Assembly (NCBI GenBank): GCA_020344415.1
Contig: CP070825.1
Location: 1,604,533 to 1,624,426, forward strand
DNA: 19,894 bases
Direction of reading: 5' to 3'
Source: Candidatus Aminicenantes bacterium
GTDB taxonomy: Bacteria; Acidobacteriota; Aminicenantia; Aminicenantales; Aminicenantaceae
Position 1 is the stretch's first letter. Every line of letters starts with the position of its first letter. Position numbers and translations under genes: made by a program. Positions 2,999 to 19,408 of the stretch are shown here, in pieces. The notes under the pieces were generated by a model. It searched no databases. It was not told the DNA's origin and worked only from the letters and a program-made list of their open reading frames with translations.

Positions 2999-3865
2999 CT
3001 ATCGAAAATAAATAGAAGAAATCTGAATTCCTAACTCTCTCTCATCGGTGGAACCTGGTATGAGTTTAGAAGGAATAAATGTCTTATCCGTTAAGAAAGT
3101 GAGAATAAACTCATCTCCTTCTCCAAGCATTTCTTTCTTTATATTGAAAGATTTCTCAAAATAGCTCTGTTTCGGGATGAACTCATCTAATACCAAATCG
3201 TTTATCTTGAAAATAACTTTCTGATCATCAAGGGCATCAATGTTAAGTCCTCCCTTTATAACCAGAAGAGCATCCCGGTGTGGATTATCGACTATACATC
3301 TGGCCTCTTTGGCCGTCCATCTCCATTCTTTAAGAAAGGATTCAGGGTTTATTTCGTGGTTATACCAACCATCTTCGTAAATGACCTCGGGAGTATCTGG
3401 AGGAGGTGGCAACACTTTTACTTTCTTAACCAAAACATCTCTCTTAGATTCTCCGGTCCTGTCATAAGGAGAGAAGAAGCCAGCAGAGATCTTTAAAGTC
3501 TCCTCTCCTTCGAACTCAGGATCAAATTCATCGATAAATCGCGGAATAAATATTCTCCGCATATACGAGTATTCCTTTAAAGATTCCCATTGAGATGTCG
3601 GAAACTCAGGGGTATGGTCATCTCGAAGTATCAGGTTGTTTTTATGCCAGAAATGAACAAAGACATTGTAATCTTGACTCACTTTTATAAATTCACTGCT
3701 TGTTTTCCATGTATACTTTATATCTGTAATTAAATAATCAGACAGGGGAGATTCAGAAAATTTTATTTCAAGCTCTACTCCTTTAACTGCTGCCTTCTTC
3801 CGGCAATGAAAAGAAACAAGCGCCAATAACATCATTATGACCACGATCGATATTTTTCTCGCCAT
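2999..3865 (-). CDS. hypothetical exported protein (signal peptide, possible lipoprotein)
   Basis: 288-aa ORF with a strong GGAGG RBS 7 nt upstream on the minus strand. The N-terminus MARKISIVVIMMLLALVSFHC is a signal peptide ending in Cys. The protein contains a PPPP linker. No family motif recognised. It is co-directional with and downstream of the BNR-repeat gene. Confidence 0.55.
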   Translation of the reverse strand: MARKISIVVIMMLLALVSFHCRKKAAVKGVELEIKFSESPLSDYLITDIKYTWKTSSEFIKVSQDYNVFVHFWHKNNLILRDDHTPEFPTSQWESLKEYSYMRRIFIPRFIDEFDPEFEGEETLKISAGFFSPYDRTGESKRDVLVKKVKVLPPPPDTPEVIYEDGWYNHEINPESFLKEWRWTAKEARCIVDNPHRDALLVIKGGLNIDALDDQKVIFKINDLVLDEFIPKQSYFEKSFNIKKEMLGEGDEFILTFLTDKTFIPSKLIPGSTDERELGIQISSIYFR

Positions 3866-4055: not shown

Positions 4056-7000
4056 TTAGTCTTTTTTTATCTTCTTAGGTGGAAAAATGCGGGGAATATT
4101 GTTCTCGTTCATCAGTTTATTCAGTTTTGGAATATCCGCTTCTATTATCCTGTTTGCTCTCTCAATGAGTGTTTCTAATTCCTCAGAATTTTTGCTTATC
4201 TGTTGAATCTGGCGTTCAGAAGGAGCACCTGTAAATCCTCCAATGGACCTTCCGAGCGTGGACAACTGCCCTCTGATTGAAAAGCGCATTCCTCGCCTGC
4301 CCAATTGCGGATCGCCTAACAACTTGATCCGGATGTCATCAATTTCCTTGGATATAGCCTTAATATGCTCTATAACAGCCTCTGGCACGCCTGATACCTT
4401 TTTTAGAGCTGTATTCTGTTTCTGCATTTCATTTTTAATATTATTTGTGGTCCTGCTCAAAGCTAAAAGAGACGGATTCAACTTATAAATCTTCAAAAGC
4501 GCATCATGCTGTGCTTTCCTCTCTTCAAAGGAAATTTCGATCCTCTTGTCTCCTTCTACCTCAACTGTTTTTGTCATTTCTTGGCCCGCAGCTTTCAGGG
4601 TGACCTGGTATTTTCCGGGGAGAACAAATGGACCTCGGGAGCTGAAGCGTCGATCCGCCTCCCTAGTCACGGGAGGAGGACCATACCTAAGGTTCCAAGC
4701 AATCCGATTGATTCCTTTGTTTTTTGAACCTTTGACTTCCCTTATCATCTGACCAGCGCTATCCTGAACGATTATCTCGACACTATCCTTTGCCTGTTCT
4801 TTCAGATAGTAGCTTATCATGGCACCAAAAGGCGGGTTAGGAGCTACAAAAAATTTGTGACCAAGATTTCCCTTGCGGTTGTAAGGATTAAACATTATCG
4901 CTTTACGGATGTCGAAAAGATAGGCGGGAGAAGCAAGGTTTTCTTTGGTAAGCTGTTCCAAAGGAGTAATATCGTCTAAAATCCAGATGCTCCGGCCATG
5001 GGTACCGAAAATCAAGTCGTTCTCTCGAGGATGGATAGCAATGTCATCAACAGGAACGAGAGGAAAATTTCCTTTAAACTTTATCCAACTTATTCCCCTA
5101 TCAGTCGAGAAGTAGGCGCCTCTTTCAGTACCAATAAAGAGGAGATTGGGATTTCGATGATGCTCGCGGATAACGTTCACAATACTGCCTTTAGGCAGGT
5201 CCCTTGAGATGTCCTTCCAGCTCTCTCCGTAATTGGTTGTCGTGAAGACATAGGCTTTATAATCATCGTTTCTGTGTCCATCCAAAGTCGCATAAGCTGT
5301 CCCTTCCCCAAAGCGTGAAGCAACGACTCTGGTAACATAGGTGTTTTTGGGCACCCCAGGAATCTTGCTTATGACATTTTTCCAAGTTTTGCCGCCATCT
5401 CGAGAAACCTGAAGGTTGCCGTCATCCGTGCCTGCGTACAGAAGGCCTTCCTTGATTGGGGATTCAGAAATTGTAGTGATATCCCCAAAGTAAGAGATTC
5501 CGTCGTGACGGGAGAGGGTCCTCCTATCTGGAAGGACCCCCATGAGGGGGAGCTTTTCTCTATCCTGCTGAGTAGTAAGGTCTATCGAAGCTTCCCATGT
5601 CTCCCCTCTGTCTTTGGATTTAAAAAGTTTGTTTCCACCGTAATAAATAGTGTTGTGATCATGAGGGGAAATCAAAATCGGAGAATTCCAGTTGAATCTG
5701 TAGCTCTCTTTCTCATCCTCTGGCTGAGGCCTGATAGATTTGCTCTCTCCTGTCCTCAAGTCAAGCCTGAAGAGATTCCCATTCTGAGACTCTGCATAGA
5801 TTGTATTATAGTCTGTGGGATCAACCTGGGTATAAAAGCCATCTCCACCGCCGATTCTGAACCAATCTTCGTTTGTAACCCCCAATCGATTCCATGTCGA
5901 AGTCGGACTTCCCCAGCTCCCGTTATCCTGCAGGCCTCCATAAATATAGTATGGGGTGCGCATGTCAAAGCCTATCTCATAAAACTGTCCAAGGGGAAGA
6001 GTGTTAATAAAATCCCAAGTTTTGCCGCGATCGTAAGAAAAATAAATTCCTCCATCCGAGCCAAGAACAATGTTATTGGAGTTTTCAGGATTTATCCACA
6101 TGGCATGATGGTCGCCATGAACCCCTCTCACATAACTTGTATTAAAAGTTTTTCCTCCGTCTTCTGAGACATACATCCGGGCTCCCAGGACCCATATCCT
6201 CTGGTCGTTGTTCGGGTCTATTCGTATCTTGCTGTAATACATAGGGCGAGGATTCGTACTCGACATCTTTTTCCAGGATAAACCCTTGTCCTCAGACCGG
6301 AAGACGCCTCCCCGTCTGTTCTCGATAACTGCATAGACTATACTGGGGTTGCTTCTGAATATATCGATCCCGATGCGACCTGTATCCCCTGCAGGCAACC
6401 CGCTGGTCAGGCGAATCCAGGTCTCCCCTCCATCGGTTGTCTTAAAGAGGCCGCTTCCAGGCCCTCCTCCGTTAAAGCCCCAGCCTCGCCTTCTCCTTTG
6501 ATAAGCTGCCGCATACAGAGTATTTGGATTCTCATGATCCATGGCAACATCCACAAAGCCCGTGTTTTCGTCGATGAACTTCGTATTGACCCACGTCTTG
6601 CCGCCATCTGCTGTTTTAAAAAGGCCTCTTTCCTTGTTCGGACCCCAGAGATGGCCCAAGGCTGCCACATAGACTATGTCCGGGTTTGCGGGATGAATGA
6701 CTAGGCGACCGATATGATGCGTATCTTTTAGTCCCATATTCTTCCACGTCTTCCCTCCATCTGTCGATTTATAGACACCGTTCCCCCATGAAGAACTCTG
6801 GCGATTGTTGGGCTCTCCAGTGCCAACCCATACTATATCAGGATCTGAGGGCGAGACAGTCACATCTCCTATAGTGCTTGTCGGTTGATCATCAAAAATC
6901 GGTTCCCAGGTCACACCGTTGTTGGTCGTCTTCCACACTCCTCCTGAAGCAGTTCCTGCATAGATAATATGTGGCGAACTCTCCACAACAGCAAAGTCAT

Positions 7001-12306: not shown

Positions 12307-13713
12307 ATGTCCCTTGTCTCCCAATTAATTTTAATAGGAATCATACTTGCTGTATTAGCCATAGTTTCTTTTATAATCGCTAAGCAGTACAGAAAAGTGG
12401 GCCCGCATGAAGCCCTCATTATTTCCGGCGGAAGGAAAAAAACAGTCATCGAGCCCGATGGAACAAGAAAGAAAATAGGCTATCGATACCGGCTGGGCGG
12501 GGGGACTTTTGTAATCCCATTTCTGGAAACCGTTGATGTTTTACCCATGGAAGTCATAACGTTGAATGTAAAAACCCCCGAAGTTCTCACTCATGGTGGT
12601 GTTCCTATCTTGGCCGAAGCTACCGCTCAGGTCAAGATAGACTCCAATGATCACGCCATTCGCTTGGCGGCCGAACAATTTCTAGGCCTTGGAAAGGAAG
12701 GCATCCGGGATGTCTCCATGACCATCCTAGAAGGAAAAATGAGAGAGGTCATGGGAGCCATGTCTGTTGAAGAAATTTTCCAAGGAAGACATGAATTTTC
12801 TACAAAAGTTGCCCAAGCTACGCAGAAAGATTTTTCCCTGATGGGCCTGACCATGATGTCCTTTGCCCTTAAAGATATAAGCGATACCCAAGGATATCTA
12901 GATGCCCTCGGAAAACCTCAAATCTCAGCAGCTAAGCGCGACGCTGCAATCGCTGAAGCAGAGACAGAAAAAGAGGCAGTGATTAAATCTTCTGAAGCTA
13001 GAAAAGAAGGGGAAGTTGCCCGACTCGCTTCTGAAGCTCTTATCGCCAAGGCCCAATGGGAAAACGAAGGCAAAAAAGCAGAGTCCCAAGTTGAGGTCAA
13101 CCAGAAAAAAGCCCAAGCGGATTTCTCCTATGAGCTTGAGCGTTTCCGCCTCAGCCAGGAAATAAAAAAAGAGGAATCCAAGGTGAAGCTCATCGAAAAA
13201 GAACAGTCTATTAAAATCGAAGAATTGGAAACGGCCCGCAGAGAGAAGGAACTCGACTCTACCGTTATTAAACCTGCTGAAGCCCGCAAATACCAGATGA
13301 AAGCAGAAGCCGAAGCTGAAGAATACCGCCTCCAATCCGAAGCTAAAGGAAAGTCTGAAGGAATAAAACTTGAAGGGATTGCAGAGGCGGAAAAAGCCAA
13401 GCAAAAAGGAATAGCTGAAGCCGAAGCCATGCTGAAAAAAGCACAAGCTTGGGAAAAGTACAACCAGGCTGCTCTCTTTGAAATGTATCTCAATATCCTT
13501 CCTGAACTGGCTAAGGCAGTCTCAGAACCTCTCTCCAAAGTAGACAAAATAGTAGTTATCGGCGGAGATAAAAGTTTGGGAACTTCAAAGATCACGTCTC
13601 AAGTTGCGGAAACCCTAGCACAGATGCCTGAAGTCGTTAAATCCCTTACAGGTGTCGACCTGAAAAAATATCTGAAAGAAAAACTCTCCCCTGAAGAAAA
13701 AGAAGAAGAGTAA
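12307..13713 (+). CDS. flotillin family protein (SPFH/band-7 domain with long EA-rich coiled-coil), FloT/YuaG-like
   Basis: N-terminal TM helix LILIGIILAVLAIVSFIIA and an SPFH domain. The extended AEAEAE/KAEAEAEEYRL coiled-coil is characteristic of flotillins. Strong AAGGAGG RBS 7 nt upstream. The antisense ORFs 12925..13446 and 13128..13595 are artefacts of the repetitive coiled-coil coding. Confidence 0.85.
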   Translation: MSLVSQLILIGIILAVLAIVSFIIAKQYRKVGPHEALIISGGRKKTVIEPDGTRKKIGYRYRLGGGTFVIPFLETVDVLPMEVITLNVKTPEVLTHGGVPILAEATAQVKIDSNDHAIRLAAEQFLGLGKEGIRDVSMTILEGKMREVMGAMSVEEIFQGRHEFSTKVAQATQKDFSLMGLTMMSFALKDISDTQGYLDALGKPQISAAKRDAAIAEAETEKEAVIKSSEARKEGEVARLASEALIAKAQWENEGKKAESQVEVNQKKAQADFSYELERFRLSQEIKKEESKVKLIEKEQSIKIEELETARREKELDSTVIKPAEARKYQMKAEAEAEEYRLQSEAKGKSEGIKLEGIAEAEKAKQKGIAEAEAMLKKAQAWEKYNQAALFEMYLNILPELAKAVSEPLSKVDKIVVIGGDKSLGTSKITSQVAETLAQMPEVVKSLTGVDLKKYLKEKLSPEEKEEE

Positions 13714-13739: not shown

Positions 13740-16094
13740 ATGGTTTCAGAAAAAGTCAACCAAATCGGCGAATCACCCACCCTTAAGGTAACGGCCAAAG
13801 CCAAGGCTATGAAGGCTGAGGGAATAGATATCGTTGACCTCAGCGTTGGAGAGCCAGATTTTCCAACTCCGGATAACATTAAATCAGCAGGCATAAAAGC
13901 CATCCAGGAAAACTTCACCAAGTACACACAAAATGATGGAATCCCTACCCTTAAAGAGGCAGTCATCCACAGGCTGAAGGAAGATATAGGGCTTGCTTAT
14001 GAAAAGGAAGAAATCATCCTTTCCACTGGCGCCAAGAGCTCCCTCTATCATCTCATCCAGGCTCTGATCAATGAGAGCGAGGAGGTCATCATCCCCTCTC
14101 CCTATTGGGTGACCTACCCTCATGCTGTATCATTGGCAAAAGGAAAATCTGTCATCATCCCAACAAAGGAGGAGAATGGATTTATCTTAAGCGGTGACCA
14201 GCTAAAGTCTGCCATCTCTCCATCCACCAGAGCCTTAATCCTGAACAATCCCTCTAATCCTACGGGAGCAGCTTACCAGAAGCATGAGCAGGAAGCCTTG
14301 GCAGACGTCGTCCTTGAAGAGAATATCTACGTCATTGCTGACGAAATATATGAAAAACTTGTCTATGATGACTTCAAGTTTGTGAGCTTTGCATCACTTG
14401 GAGAGGAAATAAAAAAGAAAACCATCATCATTAACGGCGTCTCAAAAGCCTATTCAATGACTGGGTGGCGAATAGGCTTCGCCGCTGGTCCTGCAGACAT
14501 CATCAATGGCATGGCCAAAATCCAGAGCCACACCACATCCAATCCCTGCTCAATCTCACAAATAGCAAGCCGGGAAGCTTTAGGGGGACCCCAGCATGAA
14601 ATCTCCAGAATGGCATCTGAATTTCAGAGGCGCAGGAATTATGTCCTGATGCGGCTTCAGACCATCCCTAATGTTTCCTGTTTCAAACCGCAGGGAGCTT
14701 TCTATCTCTTTCCCAATTTTTCTCATTACTATGATAAAGAATTCAACAATGTCCAGATTAGAAACTCTTACGGCCTGGCATATTATCTTCTGAAAGAAGC
14801 AAACGTGGCAATTGTTCCCGGAGATGCCTTTGGGGCTGACGATCATATCCGTATATCCTATGCCACTTCTATGGAAAACCTAGAAAAAGGCATAGATAGA
14901 ATCGCGGAGGCTCTCACCCGCCTTAAAACGCCCAAAAAGGTCGTCCGCCTCGCTTTAAATAACACTATAACCCGAGAAAAAAAGCGAGTTCCTGTTGATT
15001 CCACGATCGACGTTAAGATGAGGGATGCTCTTGTAGCTGAGATGGAAAACCATCTCAGCTATGAAAATTACTTCGAATGGAATGCGAACATCAACGGCGT
15101 CATTGTTCAGCTGCGGACGAATGTCTCCCACCTCAACGATTTTTGGATCGAGAATTGGTATCCGGCTCAACTGGAAGCGGCACTGGAACCCCACGGCATC
15201 ATATATGCTGTTGATGGCATAGCAGGTCGAGAATCCCGTGCTTTCTACAACCCAGAAACAAAAACAGGAATTCTCGTCAACACAGACAATTATACTCCTT
15301 TGCGCAGCCTTGCTCTCGGTCTTGTCATGAACGTCTCAGAAAGATTATTTAACGTTCACGCAATCCGTGGGATGTCAGCAGACATTGATTGGAATGGACT
15401 GATCCTCGTCGGACCTAAAGGGACAAAGAAAACCGAGCTGTTCTTCGGCTTGTTCTCAGATGATAGATTCCGTCTCCACTCCAATGATCTCGTTTTTGTC
15501 CGTTTTTCAGGAGGTATAGCCCTGGCTGATTCCTCGGAGAGGAAGCTTTTCATGCCAACGAATACAGTAGAATCTTATCCTCGCTTAGCCTCCCTCTTTG
15601 ATAACAGCAAGTGTGAAAACGTTATTACGCGCAAAGATGACTGCCAGGACGCAGAGTGCCTCCGCCTGGATGACTGCCGCCTCGACCGGGGGTCACCTTA
15701 CTGCTATAAAGCTTCAAAAGACGCCCATGCCATTCTCGACCCATACTGGATTGAGGGAACAGCAATGCATATCAAACGCACTGCACTTCGTTGGATGTTT
15801 ATTCTCCGTTACGACAACGTCTCGCCGCCAGTAGTGGACGTCGAGGTGGAAGATGCCCTGCGCATGCTTGAATCCGGAGAAAGCCTGGGCGTTGCAAGAG
15901 ACCTTACTCCTTCTCAAAGAGAACCCTATTACAACCCCCACCTTCTCACAACAACCCCAGAGCAGATGGAACTTCAGAGGAGTTTTTTCGAGCGCTTCCT
16001 TGAGAACATTTCCTGTTATCTGTTCAACAGCGGAGTCGCCTCTTCTGAGGAAATCAAACGAATTGTGACAGGGGAGAGCAAAACCGAAGAATGA
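13740..16094 (+). CDS. fusion protein: class-I aspartate/aromatic aminotransferase (aa 1-395) + degenerate PEP-carboxykinase(ATP)-family domain (aa ~420-784)
   Basis: The N-terminal domain has GEPDFPTP, NNPSNPTGAAY and the PLP-lysine block SKAYSMTGWRIGF (K236). The C-terminal domain aligns colinearly with PckA and with the next gene: TDNY to GTWYGG; VHAIRG to MHCSA; LILVGPKGTKKTELFFGL to FFGLSGTGKTTLS (kinase-1a); RLHSNDL to RLIGDDEH; SGG to FEGGCYAKT; CENVITRKDD to ALLENVTVREDG. The Mn-binding KK of GEMKKG is absent and the P-loop second Gly is replaced by Lys. The 784-aa frame is continuous with no internal stop. Confidence 0.7.
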   Translation: MVSEKVNQIGESPTLKVTAKAKAMKAEGIDIVDLSVGEPDFPTPDNIKSAGIKAIQENFTKYTQNDGIPTLKEAVIHRLKEDIGLAYEKEEIILSTGAKSSLYHLIQALINESEEVIIPSPYWVTYPHAVSLAKGKSVIIPTKEENGFILSGDQLKSAISPSTRALILNNPSNPTGAAYQKHEQEALADVVLEENIYVIADEIYEKLVYDDFKFVSFASLGEEIKKKTIIINGVSKAYSMTGWRIGFAAGPADIINGMAKIQSHTTSNPCSISQIASREALGGPQHEISRMASEFQRRRNYVLMRLQTIPNVSCFKPQGAFYLFPNFSHYYDKEFNNVQIRNSYGLAYYLLKEANVAIVPGDAFGADDHIRISYATSMENLEKGIDRIAEALTRLKTPKKVVRLALNNTITREKKRVPVDSTIDVKMRDALVAEMENHLSYENYFEWNANINGVIVQLRTNVSHLNDFWIENWYPAQLEAALEPHGIIYAVDGIAGRESRAFYNPETKTGILVNTDNYTPLRSLALGLVMNVSERLFNVHAIRGMSADIDWNGLILVGPKGTKKTELFFGLFSDDRFRLHSNDLVFVRFSGGIALADSSERKLFMPTNTVESYPRLASLFDNSKCENVITRKDDCQDAECLRLDDCRLDRGSPYCYKASKDAHAILDPYWIEGTAMHIKRTALRWMFILRYDNVSPPVVDVEVEDALRMLESGESLGVARDLTPSQREPYYNPHLLTTTPEQMELQRSFFERFLENISCYLFNSGVASSEEIKRIVTGESKTEE

Positions 16095-16202: not shown

Positions 16203-18035
16203 ATGAATGAAAAAAGCATCTATAAAGTAGAAGCCTATAAAAAATTTGCGGGGGAACTTCCACGAGTCCTCAAGGGGCCAAATATCCGAACCGTGGACCT
16301 CAAATGGCTTGAGCCAAGAGCGAAAGCTACGGGGACCAAAACTAAATACGGCTCCTATGGCTGGCGAGCAGCTATTTCTAGCCGGATTGCACCCAAGACT
16401 GTCTACTTAGGGAGCGAAGATATCCGACTCCCCAAGCCTACGGTTGAACAACAATCCTTGATCGCCAGGGCTCCAGAAGAGCTGGAAAAGGTGCTCCACC
16501 TCCTCCGAACTCTCCCCTTATACCACATCCGCCGTCAGATGGGAGAGAATGATTCGTACAATCCACTCTGTAACCTTTATTTTTCCGAAGCGGACCTCAT
16601 CAACTACCGCCTGGGATATATGTGGGGAAACACATTATTCAAGCCCAGCAAGCGACCGGGTCCTGAGTTCACCATGATTCACATCCCCGAAGAGCACCCC
16701 TTAAGGCAGCAGGTTCTTGCTCTTCCTGAAGACAACATCAATATTGCCCTGGGAACGGATTACATGGGAGAAGATAAAAAGGGCTTCCTCCGTCAGTCCA
16801 TGTGGACTGCGGATAAACTGGGTATGTTAGGGCTTCACTCCGGCACAAAACTCGTCACAGTCAGGGATGCTGATAACAAGCTCAAAACCTACGGAGTCTT
16901 CCTTTTTGGTCTCACTGCAACTGGCAAATCTACCTGGTCCTGTCATCAGCTCGGTCTTGACCATAAAAATGGCGAAAAAACAGAAGTGACTCAAGATGAC
17001 ATCGTTTTCCTCAAGACCGATGGATCTGCTCTAGGCACAGAAGGTGGCTTTTTTGTTAAAACAGATGTCGAGAGAGAAAACCAAGAAGCAATGTACAATG
17101 CCTTGATCGACAAATCTGCCCTTTATGAAAATGTCATGATCAGATCCAACGGAGACGTTGACTTCCTGGATGAAACCCTTACCGCAAATGGAAGAGCTGT
17201 TATACAGCGCGATAAACTCAAAGTGAGAATAAACGGAAAAATGGTCGGGATTGCATCAAAATCCATCAACCTTCCCCCTCTTGAAGAATTGGATGGATTG
17301 GTCTTTGCCTTTATAACCCGCAGAAACACCATCATGAGTTTTGCCCAGGAGCTCACTCCTGAGCAGGCAATCCTAGCCTATCTCTGGGGAGAAAGCACCC
17401 ACAGTTATGCCAGCCAGCCCCTTAAGGCCGGTGAGTCTGTGCGTATCGTGGGAACCGATCCATTCATTGTCGGATCAAGAGCCAAAAAAGTAAACCGCTT
17501 CTATGAAATTATCATGACCCTAGTCAGCAACTTTCCTGGGAAACTTAAGTTCATGCAGTACAATACAGGCGGACTGGGTGAGATTATCGAAACTCAAGAA
17601 GAAAACGGTCAACAGAAAAAAAGAATGGTGCGCAAGATCACCCGGGTTCCCATAAACTTGATGGCTCAAATCCAGAGGGGTGATCTTCGCGGAACAAATC
17701 ATTACGAAAAGGGAAGGCTCGGGACAAAAGAAGTAAAGAGCTGCGAAGGGCGAAACCTTGATGAATACGATATCCGCAAATTCTACTCAGAGGAGCAGAT
17801 CCAGCATTATATTAAAGATCTCGTAGAAGGAAGGCGCAACTTTACTGAGGAGATTGCCTCAGAAGGACTCCGACAGGAAATCCTGTATGCTGCAGAGCGC
17901 TCCTTCCGCATCGATAAAAGCGGCGAAAAAGAAAAGCCAGAAGTCCCAGAAAGTCCTGCTGAAGAAGAGAGGCCGTTTTATTACTGGGAATCTAAATCGA
18001 GACCCCGCCGAGGAGGATTCTGGAGATCAAAATAA
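16203..18035 (+). CDS. phosphoenolpyruvate carboxykinase (ATP) family protein, divergent (long N-terminus, charged/aromatic C-terminal tail)
   Basis: Colinear with E. coli PckA motifs: GTDYMGEDKKGF (GGTWYGGEMKKGMF), LHSG (MHCS His ligand), VFLFGLTATGKSTWS (kinase-1a FFGLSGTGKTTLS), DDIVF (GDDEHGW Asp ligands), GTEGGFFVKT (FEGGCYAKT), MYNALIDKSALYENVMIRSNGDVDF ([24 protein letters not shown]), NGRAVIQ (ENTRVSY Arg333), LTPEQAILAYLWGEST (LTADQTQYHFLSGFT), MQYNTGGLG (YLVNTGWNG). 610 aa versus about 540 for PckA. The N-terminal substrate-binding region is poorly conserved. Confidence 0.8.
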   Translation: MNEKSIYKVEAYKKFAGELPRVLKGPNIRTVDLKWLEPRAKATGTKTKYGSYGWRAAISSRIAPKTVYLGSEDIRLPKPTVEQQSLIARAPEELEKVLHLLRTLPLYHIRRQMGENDSYNPLCNLYFSEADLINYRLGYMWGNTLFKPSKRPGPEFTMIHIPEEHPLRQQVLALPEDNINIALGTDYMGEDKKGFLRQSMWTADKLGMLGLHSGTKLVTVRDADNKLKTYGVFLFGLTATGKSTWSCHQLGLDHKNGEKTEVTQDDIVFLKTDGSALGTEGGFFVKTDVERENQEAMYNALIDKSALYENVMIRSNGDVDFLDETLTANGRAVIQRDKLKVRINGKMVGIASKSINLPPLEELDGLVFAFITRRNTIMSFAQELTPEQAILAYLWGESTHSYASQPLKAGESVRIVGTDPFIVGSRAKKVNRFYEIIMTLVSNFPGKLKFMQYNTGGLGEIIETQEENGQQKKRMVRKITRVPINLMAQIQRGDLRGTNHYEKGRLGTKEVKSCEGRNLDEYDIRKFYSEEQIQHYIKDLVEGRRNFTEEIASEGLRQEILYAAERSFRIDKSGEKEKPEVPESPAEEERPFYYWESKSRPRRGGFWRSK

Positions 18036-18041
18036 GGGAAT

Positions 18042-18602
18042 TTACACAATCTTTTTTTCTATCTCTAGAGCCAAAAGGTGGAGGAGAAGAAGATGAACCT
18101 CCTGAATTCGAGGTGTACTTTCTGATGGCACATCCAGGAGAAAATCGGTAAGAGAGGCAAGTTTTCCCCCTCCTTTTCCTGTAAAAGCAACTGTGATAAT
18201 TTTCATCTCTTTGGCTACCTTTACAGCTTCAATCACATTTGATGAATTCCCGCTTGTCGAAAGAGCAAGTGCCACATCCCCCTCCTCGCCAAGCGCTTCT
18301 ATTTGGCGGCTAAAGACATAATCGAAAGAAGTATCATTGGCGATCGAGGTCAGGCTTGATGTGTCGGTCGTTAAGGATATCGCTCTAATAGCAGGTCTTA
18401 TATCTAAAAACTTATTGACAAGCTCTGCAGCGAAATGCTGCGCCTGAGCAGCACTTCCACCGTTTCCAAATGTCAGAATTTTACGGCCAGCTCTTAAGCT
18501 TTCAATGATCACGCTTAAGGTTTTTTCGAAAAGGCTACTTTTTGTGATAAAAAATTCCTCTGCAGTCTCTTTCAACTCAGCTATGATATTCTGATAATCC
18601 AT
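18042..18602 (-). CDS. gmhA: D-sedoheptulose-7-phosphate isomerase (SIS domain phosphoheptose isomerase)
   Basis: GNGGSAAQAQHFAAELVNKF is the SIS/GmhA signature, plus ALSTSGNS and VAFTGKGGGKL. 186 aa. GAGGAGG RBS on the minus strand. It is convergent with the PEPCK-like gene, with only 6 bp between stop codons. Confidence 0.88.
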   Translation of the reverse strand: MDYQNIIAELKETAEEFFITKSSLFEKTLSVIIESLRAGRKILTFGNGGSAAQAQHFAAELVNKFLDIRPAIRAISLTTDTSSLTSIANDTSFDYVFSRQIEALGEEGDVALALSTSGNSSNVIEAVKVAKEMKIITVAFTGKGGGKLASLTDFLLDVPSESTPRIQEVHLLLLHLLALEIEKKIV

Positions 18603-18682: not shown

Positions 18683-19408
18683 TCAATCTTCCAGCCCCGA
18701 TTGAATAATTTTTTTCACTTTGTCTATTAATTGCGGAAGGCTGCTGCGGTCGAATCCCTCAACAGGAACAGCACGGTGAAAATTGGCTCTGACTATTCCT
18801 TTCTTAACAAAAAAACTTCCCCTGGGCATAAGTTCGTAGCTTCCCTTTAGGCTCACTGGAACAATAGGGGCCAGGCTAGCAAGCGCTAGGAAAAAGCCGC
18901 CCCTCTTGAACGGCTGAAGCTTACCATCTCGACTCCTGGTTCCTTCAGGGAAAATGAGAAAAGAAAAGCCTTTCTCTTTTATATGTCGAGAGGCCCGATC
19001 TATACTCTCTTTTCCGCCTTTTAGGCGTTTCCGATCCACAGGAATGAAACCTATCTGCCTCATCGCTTGAGCAACAATGGGAATCCTGAAAATTTCTTTT
19101 TTCAGGATGACCCTTACAGATTGCGGGATAATCATAAAAAGTATTGGGCCATCGATAATACTCAGATGGTTAGCCATGAAAACATAGGACGCTTTTTTAT
19201 CTATATTCTCCACTCCGGAAATCTCCAGCCGAATCCCCACTATTTTTTGCCCGAGCCGGATAACCCATTTCCCGATCAAAATGAGCGGTTGGGAGTATCT
19301 CACAAGGTAACAGAAAAGAAGAACTGGAATGAGAAGAATTGCTAAAAGGCCATAGATAAACAAAAGAATAAGAGTTCGCATTCTCGGTTTTTCAAGATTA
19401 TACCACAA
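18683..19408 (-). CDS. plsC: 1-acyl-sn-glycerol-3-phosphate acyltransferase
   Basis: N-terminal TM helix. Acyltransferase motif I is NHLSIIDG (HX4D) and motif III is FPEGTRS. 241 aa. Confidence 0.82.
   Translation of the reverse strand: MWYNLEKPRMRTLILLFIYGLLAILLIPVLLFCYLVRYSQPLILIGKWVIRLGQKIVGIRLEISGVENIDKKASYVFMANHLSIIDGPILFMIIPQSVRVILKKEIFRIPIVAQAMRQIGFIPVDRKRLKGGKESIDRASRHIKEKGFSFLIFPEGTRSRDGKLQPFKRGGFFLALASLAPIVPVSLKGSYELMPRGSFFVKKGIVRANFHRAVPVEGFDRSSLPQLIDKVKKIIQSGLED

Follow-up and report, generated by a model that had tools for sequence, protein, structure and literature searches.

A divergent phosphoenolpyruvate carboxykinase homologue with a conserved C-terminal tail, encoded beside an aminotransferase fusion gene in Candidatus Aminicenantes

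Central carbon metabolism has one of its textbook nodes in phosphoenolpyruvate carboxykinase (PEPCK), an enzyme of which, to our knowledge, only three classes (the ATP, GTP and pyrophosphate types) have been studied structurally. The subject here is a PEPCK homologue of a Candidatus Aminicenantes bacterium (GenBank assembly GCA_020344415.1, contig CP070825.1), encoded in a stretch of 19,894 nucleotides (positions 1,604,533 to 1,624,426 of the forward strand) that is referred to as the window. The PEPCK open reading frame (ORF) extends from ATG to stop at 16203..18035 (+) and encodes 610 amino acids (aa), of which residues 1-570 make up the catalytic body and residues 571-610 a C-terminal tail. 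Its product is an exact match to a public protein from a Candidatus Aminicenantes metagenome-assembled genome (MAG) labelled "phosphoenolpyruvate carboxykinase (ATP)". Upstream on the same strand is an ORF of 784 aa (13740..16094, +) in which a class I, aspartate-type aminotransferase (AspAT) domain is joined to a C-terminal region designated domain X, and this AspAT-X gene is preceded by a gene for a flotillin (12307..13713, +) with an N-terminal membrane anchor, SPFH/Band 7 and Flot domains and a long coiled coil. The flotillin gene is the first of a conserved trio formed by these three genes.

The 610-aa protein scores 89.6 bits against the Pfam family PEPCK_ATP (PF01293), well above the gathering cutoff of 26.5 (E 2.4e-25), with an alignment that covers aa 94-355 only. 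It falls below the cutoff of the pckA equivalog model TIGR00224 (35.2 bits versus 590) and of the other PckA models (NF006819, 43.9 versus 745; NF006820, 38.5 versus 636; NF006822, 24.6 versus 806; NF006823, 30.9 versus 815), as well as below those of the GTP-type models PF00821 (13.7 versus 23.8) and NF003253 (16.5 versus 504). The best-scoring model, and the sole one to align from end to end, is NF006821 ("PRK09344.1-3"; an uncharacterised PEPCK subfamily of the Heliobacterium/Desulfotomaculum type), with 285 bits over aa 40-560 and a cutoff of 369, which is exceeded by the relatives P0174 (494 bits), P0126 (416) and P0125 (390). By these models the window protein is outside canonical PckA, since every equivalog model fails, and, by the NCBI cutoff, also outside NF006821, its nearest named relative. 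Identity to E. coli PckA is about 20%, and to characterised PEPCKs 16-20%. The best PckA match in a phmmer search of all PDB sequences had an E-value of 1.2e-7 and was limited to aa 177-332, while a profile of the family reached 9e-22; neither search found a solved structure from the PEPCK lineage of the window among the PDB sequences. When 1.84 billion representatives at 50% identity were searched exhaustively with HMMER, only 347 proteins were recovered at E<=1e-3, which shows the lineage to be a small, separate group and not part of mainstream PckA. An earlier note on this DNA had described the product as a divergent PEPCK(ATP) homologue, and the Pfam match, the shortfall against TIGR00224 and the phmmer result bear this out.

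The predicted structure leaves the superfamily assignment clear. An AlphaFold2 model built from an alignment of 71 sequences has a mean pLDDT of 90.4 and a pTM of 0.88, with pLDDT below 50 at residues 576-610. When this model was compared with the PDB by Foldseek, the top 35 matches were all ATP-PEPCKs (E 8e-30 to 1e-25, probability 1.00, 570-614 aligned columns), among them the enzymes of B. subtilis, T. thermophilus, T. cruzi, A. succinogenes and E. coli, at 16-18% identity. GTP-PEPCKs followed the ATP type with E-values of about 1e-22 and TM-scores (0.65-0.69) equal to those of the ATP-PEPCKs. Based on the Pfam threshold, the two-domain fold and the catalytic residues described below, the window protein is a member of the PEPCK superfamily. 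The Euglena complex I subunit NDUEG2 (PDB 8j9h_E2), which we take to be a non-catalytic PEPCK-fold protein, shares a likeness of fold only, at 10% identity and in another biological context.

In a bootstrapped neighbour-joining tree with E. coli PckA as the single canonical outgroup, the tailed proteins of about 610 aa group together at 100% support. Their clade is nested in a superclade whose split from E. coli PckA is likewise supported at 100%. This one-outgroup tree, in which the deeper nodes have 54-74% support, places the tailed clade on a branch of its own in the superclade that also holds the NF006821-type enzymes. Basal members of the superclade are NF006821-type enzymes of Heliobacterium, Desulfofundulus, Desulfoscipio, Elusimicrobia and Thermoanaerobaculia, and the enzyme of Heliobacterium gestii is 32.7% identical to the window protein. 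Heliobacterium modesticaldum has one annotated pckA (HM1_2773), and PEPCK activity has been measured in this organism, in extracts only and described with ADP/ATP (PMC2887804). The NF006821-type enzyme was seen in its congeners H. gestii and H. chlorum, so that the link to the measured activity runs via congeners. A sister branch (P0127, P0132, P0134, P0137, P0142 and P0144; for example L009, 7001-8629) has lost the equivalents of R65, K213 and R333 of E. coli PckA, and in P0137, P0142 and P0144 the position of H232, of D269 or of the P-loop residues K254/T255 is altered as well. The sister-branch proteins are probably not PEPCKs. Judged from such substitutions, neofunctionalisation or inactivation occurs in the PEPCK family of the window and not in the window's own clade.

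Conservation within that clade was counted in 84 members from species-representative genomes, which cover about ten phyla including Aminicenantes, Fischerbacteria, KSB1, Calditrichota, Zixibacteria and TA06, and residues were mapped onto E. coli PckA (taken from NC_000913.3) by way of bridging relatives. The earlier note held that the N-terminal element which binds oxaloacetate (OAA) and phosphoenolpyruvate (PEP) is lacking. The literal TGRSPKDK string is absent, but a diverged homologue, SSRIAPKT (aa 59-66; 16377..16400, +), is present. A local-pair alignment places SSRIAPKT on TGRSPKDK and R61 on E. coli R65, and the same placement is obtained in a hidden Markov model (HMM) alignment to PDB 1ytm; R61 is invariant (84/84) and T66 nearly so (83/84). 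Intermediate versions of the R65 motif, NRSAKNT and SRSAGST, occur in relatives. In the first MAFFT alignment R61 stood one column off R65, an offset that the local-pair and HMM alignments corrected and that is probably how the motif looked by eye to the earlier reader. This is a caution against equating the loss of a motif string with loss of function, as the key arginine has been kept.

The rest of the active site is likewise in place, as the earlier note had said of the nucleotide- and metal-binding blocks. The kinase-1a P-loop GLTATGKST (aa 236-244; 16908..16934, +) aligns so that K242 corresponds to E. coli K254 and S243 to T255, and G236-T244 is invariant in all 84 members save for T/S at 238 and S/T at 243. 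The remaining correspondences (window residue first) are Y187 with Y207, K192/K193 with K212/K213, H212 with H232, T238 with S250, D265/D266 with D268/D269, K286 with K288, R331 with R333 and R481 with R449. Invariant in 84/84 are R61, Y187, E190, K192, K193, R197, H212, T240, G241, K242, D265, D266, E280, K286, R331 and R481. The residues known to contact OAA, PEP, CO2 and Mn2+ in E. coli PckA (R65, Y207, K212, K213, H232, D269 and R333) therefore all have invariant counterparts in the clade, and the Mn2+ ligands K213, H232 and D269 of E. coli correspond to K193, H212 and D266 in the window protein. Two findings had been named in the earlier note as speaking against its proposal of an atypical enzyme: R65 and Y207 do have counterparts where these would be expected, in agreement with the first, and the protein does not group inside the canonical PckA clades, contrary to the second.

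Set beside PckA (EC 4.1.1.49, PF01293; structures from E. coli, T. thermophilus, T. cruzi and A. succiniciproducens), the window protein has the same two-domain fold (TM 0.60-0.78) and shares catalytic residues at homologous positions (R65, Y207, K212, K213, H232, K254/T255, D268/D269, K288, R333 and R449). It differs in having QDDIV after the P-loop where PckA has GDDEHGW, SSRIAPKT in place of TGRSPKDK, a beta-hairpin of about 17 residues inserted before R481, and an extra disordered tail of 40 aa with a conserved basic motif. Members of the NF006821 subfamily have QDD-type motifs in common with the window protein and an RSA version of the R65 motif; unlike it, they are 510-545 aa long, have K at the position of R481, and possess neither the tail nor flotillin and AspAT-X neighbours.

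The tail consists of two parts with different patterns of conservation. In the AlphaFold2 model the last helix spans residues 558-570, and residues 571-610 extend past it, whereas tail-less relatives outside the clade terminate near the equivalent of residue 570; the tail sequence that the earlier note had quoted is correct. Residues 571-596 (17913..17990, +) form a charged linker, predicted to be disordered with pLDDT below 50 from aa 576, whose length and sequence differ between lineages. Residues 597-610 (17991..18032, +) form a short linear motif, SKSRPRRGGFWRSK, with the clade consensus R-P-[RKP]-[RK]-x(2,3)-W-R-x-[RK]-COOH. R600 is conserved in 81 of the 84 members, P601 in 75, R/K603 in 79, W607 in 56 and R608 in 73, and the last 15 aa of clade members have a mean net charge of +4.5. 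A disordered linker followed by a conserved terminal peptide is, at the level of sequence, the signature of a docking motif. The tail is missing from the fusion protein P0126 (see below) and from relatives without the partner genes. The earlier suggestion that the protein may be targeted or regulated through its tail gains support at this level, given that the motif is kept across phyla and the linker is not, that the tail is predicted to be disordered and that the fused P0126 lacks it. An Acidobacteriota relative with 60% identity (P0121) has another basic tail, ending in GRSRR. The idea that the basic tail is matched in charge by acidic C-termini of flotillin and AspAT-X was rejected, as these termini have mean charges of -0.5 and -1.1 and are not consistently acidic.

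The upstream fusion ORF begins with the aminotransferase domain (aa 1-395; 13740..14924, +), which matches Pfam Aminotran_1_2 over its full length (2.2e-75), contains the pyridoxal phosphate-lysine motif SKAYSMTGWR and has aspartate transaminases as its best NCBIfam matches. The C-terminal 389 aa (domain X; aa 396-784; 14925..16094, +) have no Pfam match. An hhalign comparison of X with the PEPCK-like family gave 99.6% probability and an E-value of 7e-24 over 317 columns, with aa 34-375 of X on aa 91-461 of the PEPCK. BLASTP run directly between X and the PEPCK-like protein aligned the right motifs without reaching significance (E 0.97); the homology of X is decided by profile-profile and structural comparisons only. 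X lacks both the N-terminal segment that carries R65 and the C-terminal adenine-binding segment. At the positions of K213, the P-loop Gly, D268, K288 and R333 the window's X has S, K, N, P and H, respectively (read by hand from the hhalign alignment), and its P-loop reads GPKGTKKT. Since these segments are gone and the catalytic positions are substituted, X is, by these comparisons, a truncated and degenerate paralogue of PEPCK. Some distant X domains retain a canonical Walker A motif and the Arg. Assignment of X as an HPr kinase (Pfam PF07475) was rejected in favour of a truncated PEPCK, since X did not show an HprK_C match combined with an HprK-sized fold. X also contains a Cys-rich insert, SKCENV..DDCQDAECLRLDDC..SPYC, which may be a metal site and which is absent from the P0126 fusion. 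In P0126 (899 aa; L005/L006, 7001-9700) X directly precedes, in one polypeptide, a PEPCK of the family whose catalytic residues are intact (BLASTP E 6e-53), with no AspAT and no tail. The neighbours of the P0126 gene have archaeal-type Pfam matches (V4R and a faint TFIIE_alpha/PF0610-like match), a hint that archaea, too, have X paired with PEPCK.

Linkage of the genes was assessed in a sample of 80 genome loci, scored for AspAT-X within 5 kb of the PEPCK gene; 70 of the loci were assessable and 10 were too short to judge. AspAT-X lies within this distance in 62 of the 70, with a co-linear arrangement in 53, a divergent one in 7 and the PEPCK gene first in 2. Gaps from stop to start in the co-linear loci range from -41 to +117 bp and are often between -4 and +30 bp. 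X is fused to AspAT in about 58 of the 62 cases, and the flotillin gene is directly 5' of AspAT-X on the same strand in 55 of 57 (loci L012-L091, from many phyla). Tail-less relatives (P0125, P0174 and P0132) have no flotillin or AspAT-X partners. In the two P0121 loci (L007/L008) the strand opposite the PEPCK-like gene carries flotillin and AspAT-X, and about 500 bp separate the PEPCK-like gene from an upstream His_Phos_1 (phosphoglycerate-mutase-like) gene (5940-6503). The linkage to flotillin is an unexplained tie between a membrane scaffold and two soluble enzymes of central metabolism. The PEPCK type of the window is also found fused to other domains: to a 2-hydroxyacid dehydrogenase, glycerate kinase (DUF4147/MOFRL), PGK and a PGAM-like domain in P0208 (2981 aa), to a PYC_OADA (pyruvate-carboxylase/OAA-decarboxylase) domain in P0211 (2669 aa) and to phosphoglucomutase in P0216 (3421 aa), and it is embedded in the giant multidomain protein P0223 (4731 aa). 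These giant proteins may be eukaryotic or may be artefacts of assembly. A literature search for PEPCK in Aminicenantes, for a link between PEPCK, AspAT and flotillin, and for PEPCK pseudoenzymes found nothing relevant. The tail motif, the PEPCK-derived pseudo-domain on an aminotransferase ORF and the flotillin/AspAT-X/PEPCK trio across phyla appear to be undescribed in the literature that was searched.

The window protein, from a deep lineage outside the canonical PckA and PckG groups, almost certainly still acts on oxaloacetate. It is likely a genuine PEPCK coupled to AspAT at the aspartate/OAA/PEP node, where X would be a pseudoenzyme acting as adaptor and the tail would serve for docking. 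Chemistry on PEP and OAA is indicated because of the linkage to AspAT and the Rosetta-stone fusions. With its standard active site the enzyme would turn oxaloacetate and a nucleoside triphosphate into PEP, CO2 and a nucleoside diphosphate, or the reverse, and it would work as one module with the product of the AspAT-X gene. AspAT would supply or consume oxaloacetate, so that the module could link aspartate to PEP in either direction. The role of domain X is most likely that of an adaptor without catalysis of its own, which would bind the active PEPCK and allow labile, low-abundance oxaloacetate to be passed on locally. The tail with its Arg/Trp motif is most likely a docking peptide whose target could be X, the co-encoded flotillin scaffold or an anionic membrane surface. 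Further-reaching, and on balance doubtful, is the proposal that the trio constitutes a hitherto unrecognised, membrane-organised metabolon from aspartate to PEP, or the reverse, in many uncultured phyla, in which X would capture PEPCK via the tail peptide, pseudo-dimerisation or both, flotillin would be the scaffold, OAA would be channelled and the nucleotide might be other than ATP.

Several observations weigh against this coupled PEPCK. AspAT-X is missing nearby in 8 loci with full flanks, and the corresponding 8 genomes still keep the tail motif. The comparison of charge between the tail and the C-termini of flotillin and AspAT-X was negative. The Rosetta-stone fusion of X to PEPCK comes from a single lineage, the aminotransferase falls below the equivalog cutoffs, so that AspAT specificity is deduced from best matches, and the window protein scores below the NF006821 cutoff. 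We know of no assayed enzyme from the tailed clade, nor of a purified and characterised member of the lineage. It is possible, then, that the protein is an ordinary stand-alone gluconeogenic or anaplerotic PEPCK, that its tail is a decoration without a partner (for solubility or non-specific charge) and that its neighbours are linked to it only by co-regulated amino acid catabolism. Such an enzyme would fit the complete catalytic site and PEPCK fold, the public label PEPCK (ATP) and the 8 genomes that have the tail but no nearby partners, interaction with a partner being deduced from the genes. It would not readily account for a terminal motif kept across phyla while the linker drifts, which is typical of a specific binding peptide, and co-regulation alone can hardly explain why the X paralogue is fused to AspAT in about 58 of 62 cases and to PEPCK in P0126. 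The trio also persists through three different rearrangements. For these reasons a stand-alone enzyme is considered unlikely.

Alternatively, the protein could phosphorylate or decarboxylate another 2-oxo acid, as the earlier note proposed, or it could act, in the manner of the structurally related HprK/P, as a kinase on proteins or small molecules. Identity to characterised PEPCKs of only 16-20%, the altered TGRSPKDK motif and the existence of sister branches without the R65, K213 and R333 equivalents, which indicate that neofunctionalisation occurs in the family, would all be consistent with a change of substrate. Yet the ligands for OAA, PEP, CO2 and Mn are invariant in the window's clade (84/84), and it is the invariance of R61, Y187, the Mn ligands, the P-loop, K286 and R331 that makes a non-OAA substrate unlikely. 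OAA and PEP are likewise indicated by the AspAT neighbour (62/70) and by the domains to which relatives are fused (PGK, PGAM, glycerate kinase and PYC_OADA), and the closest cultured relatives come from organisms with measured PEPCK activity. Another substrate is accordingly rated as highly improbable.

The identity of the nucleotide is a separate matter, and one on which the coupled PEPCK is less secure. R481, the counterpart of R449, is conserved, but the adenine/ribose pocket of the E. coli type (E297, T455 and NTGW) is otherwise not found: E297 is replaced by Q (Q294) throughout the superclade, and in the tailed clade T455 is replaced by M (M487) and NTGW by NTGG (W443 to G). In tail-less relatives the PEPCK-like gene is immediately preceded by a gene for nucleoside diphosphate kinase (NDK) (L010, 3201-3701; L011, in an ORF ending at 3678), and NDK is located 3-70 bp downstream of it in L055 (6908-7324), L063 (5552-5968), L080/L081 (6831-7286) and L084 (6827-7294), loci that belong to Calditrichaceae and to MAGs labelled Planctomycetia or Planctomycetota. 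Because the pocket positions differ and at least four lineages have NDK next to the PEPCK gene, ATP specificity is uncertain. A genuine PEPCK that uses GTP, ITP or another nucleoside triphosphate, with the adjacent NDK re-equilibrating the nucleotide pool, would be compatible with coupling to AspAT and would agree with these observations and with the equal TM-scores for GTP- and ATP-PEPCKs. This is nevertheless rather unlikely, as the ATP type fares better both in the sequence models and in the E-values from Foldseek, the counterpart of the adenine-stacking R449 is conserved, NDK is found neither in the window nor at most loci, and the heliobacterial PEPCK activity, from extracts only, was described with ADP/ATP (PMC2887804).

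The other genes in the window are ordinary for a Gram-negative chromosome and, together with flotillin and the aminotransferase, include those for ComEC, LpxK, LpxL, RNase PH, an epimerase, a GT2 glycosyltransferase, a SIS protein and an acyltransferase. The 20-kb window contains neither a tRNA nor an Rfam element, and promoter and terminator scans of it gave results no better than those for shuffled sequence. The SIS_2 (GmhA/DiaA-like) gene (18042-18602, -) is convergent with the PEPCK gene at a gap of 6 bp, and in several Aminicenantes loci the stop codons of the two genes overlap by 4 bp. Beyond it is the gene for a PlsC-type acyltransferase (18683-19408, -), a pairing kept within Aminicenantes only. 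A SIS-domain gene also lies 27 bp upstream of the P0132 gene on the same strand.

The chemistry of the enzyme is probably ordinary, and its gene is already labelled pckA in public records. What the comparisons add is a fold and an origin for some 390 previously unannotated residues of the aminotransferase ORF. The PEPCK lineage itself is widespread in abundant uncultured phyla of sediments and the subsurface (Aminicenantes, Zixibacteria, Calditrichota, KSB1 and others), in whose metabolic reconstructions it appears as "pckA". Should the active enzyme indeed be recruited by the fusion of AspAT with a pseudo-PEPCK, bacteria would offer in this fusion a clear case of a pseudoenzyme paralogue serving as a channelling adaptor for unstable oxaloacetate, and the PEPCK would also be a rare example of a soluble enzyme of central metabolism that is genetically tied to a flotillin.

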